Positions 15,316 through 15,537 are shown, numbered from the stretch's first letter. The stretch: DNA of 22,032 nucleotides from a virus (IMGVR_UViG_2740892235_000005), one strand, 5' to 3'. The notes: generated by a model from the letters alone, not told the origin. Numbers and translations: made by a program.

Positions 15316-15537
15316 GCCGCAAATGTTAACTGCTGCCAGGTTAACATTTGCTGAAAAAGCCTGTTAACATTTTTTCCACGCAACAAACTGAATAATAAAG
15401 ATAAAAACCGAAAAAATGCCCGGACAGCCAGTTAACATGTTAACTGCCCTGAAACGGGAATTTTTTCTCTGCGTGAGAGGGGGCGCGGTGTCCAAAGCGA
15501 TCGTTTTTTACGCCGGATGATACCCCCCCGGGTCGGG
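15316..15537 (-). promoter_or_regulatory. intergenic region between HNH and terS with five GTTAACAT/ATGTTAAC octamers; candidate packaging (cos/terminase recognition) or operator site
   Basis: Octamers at 15323-15330, 15340-15347, 15363-15370 and 15431-15444 (perfect 14-bp palindrome GTTAACATGTTAAC); GC-rich block GAGAGGGGGCGCGGTG at 15475-15490. Confidence 0.4.

Follow-up and report, generated by a model that had tools for sequence, protein, structure and literature searches.

Packaging signals of the closest described systems

The packaging signal of phage lambda includes cosB, in which the sites R3-I1-R2-R1 for the small terminase subunit gpNu1 are located between cosN and the start of Nu1 (summarized in PMC6092414). 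In HK97, the small terminase subunit (TerS) has no helix-turn-helix (HTH) and recognizes only one 15-bp site (+15 to +29), the DNA passing through its central channel (PMC11331095). TerS proteins of the SPP1/SF6 G1P type contact the pac site on both sides of the cut, and their binding to DNA in vitro is reported to be of weak sequence specificity (PMC7672466). Satellites can make use of such systems in two ways, either by carrying the packaging signal of their helper or by encoding their own TerS, which recognizes their own DNA (PMC6092414). For the TerS-encoding PICIs described from E. coli in 2018, neither mobilisation nor a helper phage was found (PMC6092414). EcCICFT073 is described as using Rpp and a lambda-type cos (PMC6739421).

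The locus described here is part of a viral stretch of 22,032 nucleotides, referred to as the window, which belongs to a prophage of the Shiga-toxin type. It consists of five copies of the octamer GTTAACAT placed between a cos site and terS, downstream of an HNH endonuclease gene. It is a hybrid of known parts that stands outside the recognition families of both lambda and HK97. Judging from the comparisons below, the array is most likely a so far uncharacterised representative of a type of packaging signal that is already known, namely a cos recognition subsite.

The closest functional analogue would be lambda cosB. In both cases, the stretch from the nicking site to the start of terS contains several short TerS words (candidate sites in the window) that do not all have the same orientation, and a proximal site is set apart from a distal cluster by an A/T-rich element, which in the window is a candidate bend or IHF site. 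The distance from the cut to the terS start is also very similar, amounting to 229 nt in the window and about 190 nt in lambda, and both elements would determine packaging specificity, which in the window is deduced from sequence comparison. The proteins and the ends are nevertheless different: TerS is of the Terminase_2/SF6 HTH type instead of gpNu1, the 10-nt overhang is 3' (as transferred from a relative) while that of lambda is 12 nt long and 5', and the locus has an upstream HNH gene and a TerL of the HK97 gp2 type, without sequence similarity to lambda.

With SPP1/SF6 G1P, the locus shares the fold of the TerS DNA-binding domain (4zc3/2cmp) and the Pfam family. The two-sided pac contacts of SPP1 match those relatives of the window that have a short gap and word copies at -34 and +33. 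In the window lineage, by contrast, the upstream copy has decayed and all five octamers are downstream of the cut, whereas the pac boxes of SPP1/SF6 (pacL and pacR) flank the pacC cut. Furthermore, the Bacillus phages SPP1 and SF6 package by the headful (pac) mechanism, whereas the ends seen here (from a relative) are precise cos ends.

HK97 has the same gene order (HNH-cos-terS-terL), a homologous TerL, an A-tract shortly after the cut and, like the window, a 10-nt 3' overhang (PMC11331095; PMC7946995; assigned here from phage Lys8385Vzw). Yet comparison of the window TerS with HK97 gp1 yielded no similarity (best E = 1.2), the window cos has no sequence similarity to that of HK97, and HK97 has no repeat array. 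HK97 was rejected as a direct model, given that TerS and cos sequence are unrelated. Since the window TerS is an SF6-type HTH protein without similarity to gp1, the locus resembles HK97 at the level of cleavage and not of recognition. The original prediction, which placed the array in an HK97-like context, holds for the HNH-terS-terL layout, TerL and the 3' overhang transferred from Lys8385Vzw, but not for TerS.

The TerS system of the SaPIs is of the pac type, unlike the cos site of this locus. The likeness to the packaging of SaPIs, cos-carrying ones included, and of E. coli PICIs resides in the fact that both satellite strategies, the copied signal and the own TerS, are found here on one cos core.

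Genes flanking the array and the start of terS

The genes around the array are encoded on the minus strand in the order HNH, terS, terL, prohead protease-capsid fusion and portal protein. The first three are contiguous and correspond, according to Pfam, to HNH, Terminase_2, and TerL_ATPase plus TerL_nuclease. The HNH endonuclease gene (15538..15903, minus strand) codes for 121 aa (Pfam HNH, E = 5.9e-7), is annotated as HNH endonuclease in BP-4795. It lies directly upstream of cos and represents the HNH that accompanies the terminase in HK97-style packaging modules. The terL gene (13028..14689, minus strand; 553 aa) encodes a homologue of HK97 gp2, with 23% identity over about 460 aa (BLASTP, E = 3e-11).

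The terS gene (14686..15249, minus strand) encodes 187 aa from a GTG at 15249, as in the BP-4795 annotation, and matches Terminase_2 (PF03592) with E = 1.6e-8. This GTG is preceded by a strong Shine-Dalgarno sequence, GGGAGGAGG, at 15260..15252, and it is here that the homology to all other TerS proteins begins. A longer frame from the ATG at 15315 is broken in relatives by a frameshifting extra G, which indicates that the GTG at 15249, and not this ATG, is the true start. The non-coding gap between HNH and terS therefore comprises 15250-15537 (288 nt). The gap had earlier been taken as 15316-15537, with terS starting from the ATG at 15315; this is corrected, as the ATG is not a conserved start. 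The 209-aa open reading frame that begins there is an over-extension covering 15250-15315 of the window. The start of terS also differs between database records, with 187 aa in BP-4795 and a CTG start in Lys8385Vzw.

Two further peculiarities of the neighborhood can be mentioned. The order of the head genes (8230-12964, minus strand) is unusual, with a 645-aa fusion of prohead protease and major capsid protein (Peptidase_S78 and Phage_capsid) preceding an 861-aa portal protein, which has a long C-terminal extension past its Phage_portal domain. In addition, a 113-aa protein with a TonB C-terminal domain, called 'protein TonB' in Lys8385Vzw, is encoded at 16277-16618 (minus strand) between a Rha-like gene and the HNH gene.

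The cos site

The position of the cut is transferred to the window from its close relative Lys8385Vzw, whose TerS is 97% identical and whose ends are a PhageTerm computation. PhageTerm analysis of induced Lys8385Vzw DNA classified it as a cos phage with 3' cohesive ends and cos sequence CGCCCCCCCT (PMC7946995). The record of this phage starts with CTCACGCAGAG and ends with GGACACCGCCCCCCCT, the breakpoint falling exactly at cos. The corresponding cosN of the window is the 10-nt 3' cohesive-end sequence CGCGCCCCCT at 15478..15487 (minus strand), with the top-strand cut after 15478, and it differs from the cos of Lys8385Vzw at one base. The assignment of 15478-15487 as a 10-nt 3' cohesive end has been shown in this close relative, and the GC-rich block noticed beforehand at 15475..15490 is real and contains it. 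A search for other phage records ending at the Lys8385Vzw cut found none. Burkholderia and Acinetobacter phages with distant TerS relatives have terS 20-80 nt from the end of the record. The record ends of phi330 were rejected as cos evidence, as they fall inside terS and are arbitrary, and so was the cos of SfI/SfV (TGCCCGCCCC), which belongs to a different packaging module.

The overhang is embedded in an invariant cos core, GGACAC-[overhang]-CTCACGCAGAGAAAAAATTCCC (15456..15493, minus strand), which includes an A6 tract at about +12 to +17 from the cut. The core is near-identical in prophages of Atlantibacter, Kluyvera, Enterobacter, Erwinia, Serratia, Pantoea and Citrobacter whose TerS proteins are only 32-49% identical, and it is also present in satellites and in a class of loci from AT-rich hosts. 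Further upstream, a G7 run (15523..15529, minus strand; about -46 to -52) is conserved in all classes of relatives, being found in 20 out of 20 Enterobacterales loci, as well as in the satellites and the AT-rich class. This run is probably part of the cos element recognized by the conserved TerL/HNH machinery. Between both elements lies GTAAAAAA (15504..15511, minus strand; -34), which is what remains, in degenerate form, of a GTAAACAT copy found ahead of cos in the short-gap relatives. A palindrome with a Dam site (GATC), CGATCGC, precedes the cos overhang by about 20 nt (15497-15503); most relatives have kept it, though not all, and some read CGACCGC.

An array of five octamers downstream of the cut

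Counting both strands, GTTAACAT occurs five times in the window and always inside 15323-15444, against a chance expectation of 0.48 on average; none of 100 dinucleotide-preserving shuffles of the whole window reaches five copies. The earlier observation of five copies within about 120 bp, far beyond chance, is thereby confirmed. One-mismatch variants of the octamer are not enriched elsewhere in the window.

The octamers extend from +33 to +154 downstream of the cos cut, with the terS start at +229. Site 1 (15437-15444, minus strand) and site 2 (15431-15438, plus strand) start at +33 and +39, respectively, and overlap to build the 18-bp perfect palindrome CAGTTAACATGTTAACTG at 15429-15446. Site 3 (15363-15370, plus strand; +107) reads ATGTTAAC in the direction of terS and lies within a further longer repeat, GTTAACATTT, at 15363-15372. 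Site 4 (15340-15347, plus strand; +130) and site 5 (15323-15330, minus strand; +147) belong to the two arms of a 12-bp perfect inverted pair, GCAAATGTTAAC/GTTAACATTTGC, at 15319-15330 and 15340-15351. The inverted pairs and the perfect palindrome that had been described before are thus borne out, and the latter is longer than the 14 bp initially claimed. No paper containing or describing either the palindrome CAGTTAACATGTTAACTG or the octamer array was found.

The proximal and distal sites are separated by a T-rich spacer (15373..15428, minus strand) that holds an IHF-like sequence, ATTCAGTTTGTTG, at 15393..15381. This is a one-mismatch match to the IHF consensus, of which the scan gave 32 against 24 expected, a difference that is not significant alone. 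Its TTCA....TGTT core and the T-tract are conserved in the phage L164 and in the satellite L169. By analogy with lambda I1, the T-rich spacer is a possible bend or IHF site.

Conservation of the octamers and their spacers

The region is 92-97% identical to BP-4795, to many Stx1a and Stx2c phages and to some Stx2a phages. As the whole segment is conserved to this degree among close relatives, their comparison is uninformative and more distant loci are needed. In the phage L164, whose TerS is 69% identical, 37 of the 38 octamer positions are identical, versus 94 of 170 positions elsewhere in the segment (Fisher p = 1.3e-7).

Diverged arrays were additionally collected with a gapped-pattern scan, which demanded exact sites 1-3, so that sites 4 and 5 alone provide an unbiased statistic. 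Across 61 distinct arrays, a single one of the 16 columns of these two sites varies, versus 52 of the 89 spacer columns (p = 8e-5), and site 4 is invariant except for one sequence. The lengths of the spacers are also kept: 60 nt between sites 2 and 3, 15-16 nt and 9 nt, even where their sequence is only about 60% identical. One match of the gapped scan, L299, was excluded, since it lacks the cos core and is unrelated. This AT-rich contig (IMG/VR 3300030095_004175) contains GTTAACATGTTAAC and three cctttaacATGTTAACta repeats, which may be the iteron-like array of another element.

Ancestral layout and origin of the additional copies

An alignment-based scan of genome contigs recovered the distant loci, while a scan with a single TerS found nothing. 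A near-invariant stretch of about 110 nt is common to 20 Enterobacterales prophages from other genera and to Salmonella phage FSL SP-016, in the order G-run, GTAAACATCGATCGC, GGACAC-CGCGCCCCCT-CTCACGCACAGAAAAAATTCCCCTCTGGAGGGTGTAAAC-ATGTTAACAG. In the short-gap relatives, 39 nt separate the cut from the beginning of terS, whose start codon is inside a near-palindrome, GTAAAC·ATGTTAAC, where ATGTTAAC corresponds to the start codon plus two codons (Met-Leu-Thr). Four of these relatives (L002, L088, L091 and L097) carry GTAAACAT at both -34 and +33.

The palindrome of the window is homologous to this ancestral terS start region (GTAAAC-ATG-TTA-AC). According to the alignment, the palindrome and a re-created start, GTGCTGACA, are about 190 bp farther apart in the window lineage than in these relatives. 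The additional segment, missing from most relatives, comprises the T-rich tract and three more perfect octamers, and four of the five octamers are found at its edge or inside it. Sites 2 and 3 have flanking bases in common. These features suggest that the extra octamer copies probably originated by duplication of the old terS start. Since most relatives manage with 2-3 word copies and a 39-nt gap, the three extra octamers may be dispensable.

The same observations would be expected if the array were a functionless relic, made up of copies of the old terS start (ATG-TTA-AC) left by duplications or by the insertion of the 190-bp segment: ATGTTAAC is literally the terS start and two codons in the short-gap relatives, the shared flanks of sites 2 and 3 suggest duplication, and most relatives do without the segment. 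Nonetheless, the octamers stay perfect in phages and satellites whose spacers have fallen to 55-65% identity. Duplication probably explains where the copies came from, but not their maintenance, and a relic without function is highly improbable.

Covariation of the repeated word with the class of TerS

In the predicted TerS of the window, an N-terminal SF6-type HTH domain (residues 1-55) is connected by a disordered linker to a C-terminal part that is helical. In the AlphaFold model, residues 1-55 form four helices with pLDDT above 92, and the best Foldseek match is the DNA-binding domain of SF6 TerS, 4zc3 (TM 0.84, rmsd 1.6 A, 30% identity); at the sequence level, the match to 4zc3/2cmp is weak (E = 0.18-0.34).

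The relationship between this domain and the repeated word was analyzed in 156 non-redundant loci having a cos core followed by a Terminase_2 TerS, with words counted from -60 to +330 of the cut. The words repeated across loci that share the cos core are GTTAACAT, GTAAACAT, GTTAACGT, AGTTACAC and AGTTAAAG, and they are distributed by the class of the TerS DNA-binding domain. The TerS class ...KNKTASAIAAGYSAKTARVKGSQL, to which the window belongs, is associated with five copies of GTTAACAT, and the class ...MSQKDAAIKAGYSEKSARSKGSQL with 1-3 copies of GTAAACAT plus one ATGTTAAC. A single copy of GTTAACGTGTTAAC is found with the class ...SSQAEAARKAGYSEKTARSQGSRL, and three copies of AGTTACAC with the class ...ANPTEAAIHAGYSEKTARVKGWQL, where the AGTTACA core is present six times in the satellite L165. 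Finally, the class ...ATNKEAAISAGYEEKTASQQGSKL, from AT-rich hosts, has 2-4 copies of AGTTAAAG. The recognition helix also differs among the five classes (KGSQL, KGSRL, KGWQL, QGSRL and QGSKL). The resulting matrix of words and classes is block-diagonal, the exceptions being the single ATGTTAAC of the MSQKDAAIKAGYSEKSARSKGSQL class and one retained in the satellite L169. The first copy of the word is located at +31 to +33 in every class, and the cos core barely changes. As the words adjoin terS or are inside it, part of this covariation could reflect co-inheritance and not co-adaptation.

In the short-gap classes, words cluster a second time within the terS gene, some 220-300 nt away from the cut. 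Among the individual loci, L088, L172, L183, L198, L206 and L213 have an extra copy at about +244 to +258 within the gene, often as the palindrome TGTTAACA, which hints at a second recognition cluster within terS in these relatives. The AT-rich IMG/VR contigs L187, L199, L221 and L225 keep the GC-rich cos core GGACACCGCCCCCCATCTCA along with a quite different TerS (MALTEKMKKFARAIVDG...), and have AAAAGTTAAAG repeats at +33 and +45 and three more inside terS.

PICI-like satellites with the array or with their own TerS

Two kinds of PICI-like satellites carry the cos core. The satellites of the first kind, L253 and L347 (about 11 kb), encode an integrase, Ash, a D5_N primase, an SSB and a lambda-E-like capsid protein, but no TerS. 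At one of their ends (10735-10960 in L253), they have the cos core and, behind it, five GTTAACAT octamers whose order, orientation and spacing are those of the window; the spacers are about 64% identical to the window. What follows this array is not terS, but only a host autotransporter gene, and roles that need a downstream terS are therefore ruled out. A packaging signal borrowed from a helper would be expected to have this appearance.

These satellites bear directly on two alternative explanations. According to the first, the array would act at the RNA level, with hairpins in the late transcript from HNH to terS controlling the translation of terS or the stability of the transcript. The 12-bp inverted pair and the palindrome can indeed fold into stable hairpins, and a weak terminator-like hairpin with a T-run is present at 15423..15408. 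The RNA of the gap folds somewhat better than shuffled sequences, although the effect is modest (z = -2.07) and only the palindromes appear as hairpins; an Rfam search with this RNA returned no family at E <= 1. Against this role, L253 and L347 retain the array in the absence of a downstream terS, other TerS classes have direct instead of inverted repeats at the same position, and the terminator-like hairpin is not conserved in L164. Regulation at the RNA level is therefore considered very unlikely.

The second alternative, already contemplated in the original prediction, is a set of operators for a dimeric HTH regulator acting on a promoter of the packaging genes. The palindromic architecture of the sites would suit such a regulator, but the only promoter-like match in the gap is antisense (plus strand) and built from the octamers themselves, and the gap has no promoter-like site on the sense strand. 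In the late operon layout of lambdoid phages, terS is read through from upstream. Moreover, there is no regulator gene among the neighboring genes, the position of the array with respect to the cos cut does not vary, and satellites retain it where nothing downstream is left to regulate. There is hardly any likelihood left for the operator, and this part of the original prediction is not sustained.

The second kind of satellite, represented by the E. coli island L292/L165 (about 8.5 kb, next to narP-ccm), carries, in this order, an integrase, an AAA_25 replicase, cos, TerS and a capsid-like protein. L169 is a degraded island at the same narP-ccm site. The TerS of these elements is located at 10001-10489 in L292 (P0061) and at 1400-1990 in L165/L166, and is also found in L169/L170 and L293 (P0053). 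L292/L165 and L169 have TerS but no gene for HNH, TerL or portal protein, and their word is AGTTACAC. In L169, the cos core and the T-rich tract are almost exactly those of the phage L164. Its TerS (P0053) is mosaic: identity to the TerS of L164 amounts to 89% for the C-terminal part and drops to 51% for the DNA-binding domain. This provides the strongest argument for TerS being the reader of the words, since the swap of the word accompanies a change in the TerS DNA-binding domain alone, in elements equipped with no further packaging protein. No paper describing such a swap in satellites was found.

The swap also bears on the possibility that the octamers bind a different cos-cleavage factor, such as the HNH endonuclease, TerL or a host nucleoid protein. 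The array is, after all, placed between HNH and terS, HK97-type systems depend on the HNH protein to cleave cos (PMC11331095), palindromes suit any dimeric binder, and an IHF-like sequence is present. However, the word changes in satellites that have TerS but neither HNH nor TerL, while the cos core, presumably read by TerL/HNH, remains constant. A host factor would have no need for a different word in elements that reside within the same E. coli host, and GTTAACAT is unlike the IHF consensus. Binding by another factor is consequently unlikely, albeit less so than the other alternatives.

The cos core common to phages and satellites and the mosaic TerS with its L164-like C-terminal part suggest, from sequence comparison, that phages of the BP-4795/Stx type may be the helpers of the TerS-encoding PICIs from E. 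coli.

Proposed mechanism and its implications

The five octamers are, with good probability, recognition sites for the HTH domains of TerS, and would represent the cosB-like half of cos. The position of the cut, the conservation of the octamers, the covariation of word and TerS, the satellites and the SF6-type HTH domain of TerS all support the earlier suggestion of a putative TerS-binding array next to cos. Against it stand the weak in vitro specificity reported for TerS proteins of the SPP1/SF6 type (PMC7672466) and the quite different mechanism, with one site and passage through the channel, of HK97, which is the best-studied cos phage dependent on HNH (PMC11331095). In the proposed mechanism, an oligomeric TerS would bind both the palindrome (+33 to +46) and the distal cluster (+107 to +154) in the replicated concatemer. 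The T-rich spacer may bend the DNA, as I1 does between R3 and R2 in lambda cosB, allowing both clusters to contact one TerS assembly; this bend and a role of IHF in it are speculative. The TerS complex would then direct TerL to the invariant core, where TerL, assisted by the product of the neighboring HNH gene, would introduce a staggered cut at 15478-15487, leaving the 10-nt 3' overhang. Packaging would subsequently run towards terS. The octamer word would act as a specificity code matching the class of the TerS DNA-binding domain, on a cos core common to many phages and satellites.

A broader interpretation, which is put forward tentatively, is that the word is a swappable address beside a universal cos core. 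BP-4795/Stx1/Stx2c phages and at least two kinds of satellites would compete for TerL/HNH, one kind by copying the five octamers and the other through a mosaic TerS (C-terminus of the helper type, new HTH) and AGTTACAC, and the lineage-specific extension of about 190 bp, with its three extra octamers, would be an adaptation for higher affinity to, or exclusivity for, the phage's own TerS. If this is true, the helpers of TerS-encoding PICIs in E. coli would be identified as well; in any case, the locus offers a candidate helper-satellite pairing for E. coli PICIs that lack known helpers. It also provides a testable recognition code for an HTH-type TerS in a cos system, with five TerS classes, five words and one cut site. 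From a practical point of view, the corrected terS start (GTG 15249) and the cos coordinates can be used for annotation and for cos-based transduction tools.

Distribution

The gap between HNH and terS, which is unannotated, is found in 1,274 of 5,426 complete E. coli genomes, and as many as seven copies can be present in one genome. It is also present in Stx1a, Stx2c and some Stx2a phages. The array would define which DNA is packaged and spread by toxin-carrying phages and satellites. In the PPompW prophages, ISEc20, an element of the IS110 family, has one end within the conserved G-run upstream of cos, equivalent to about 15523-15529 of the window (1046-2504 in L087, PPompW_132418); the upstream HNH and lysis genes are gone, and cos, the octamer array and terS are intact.
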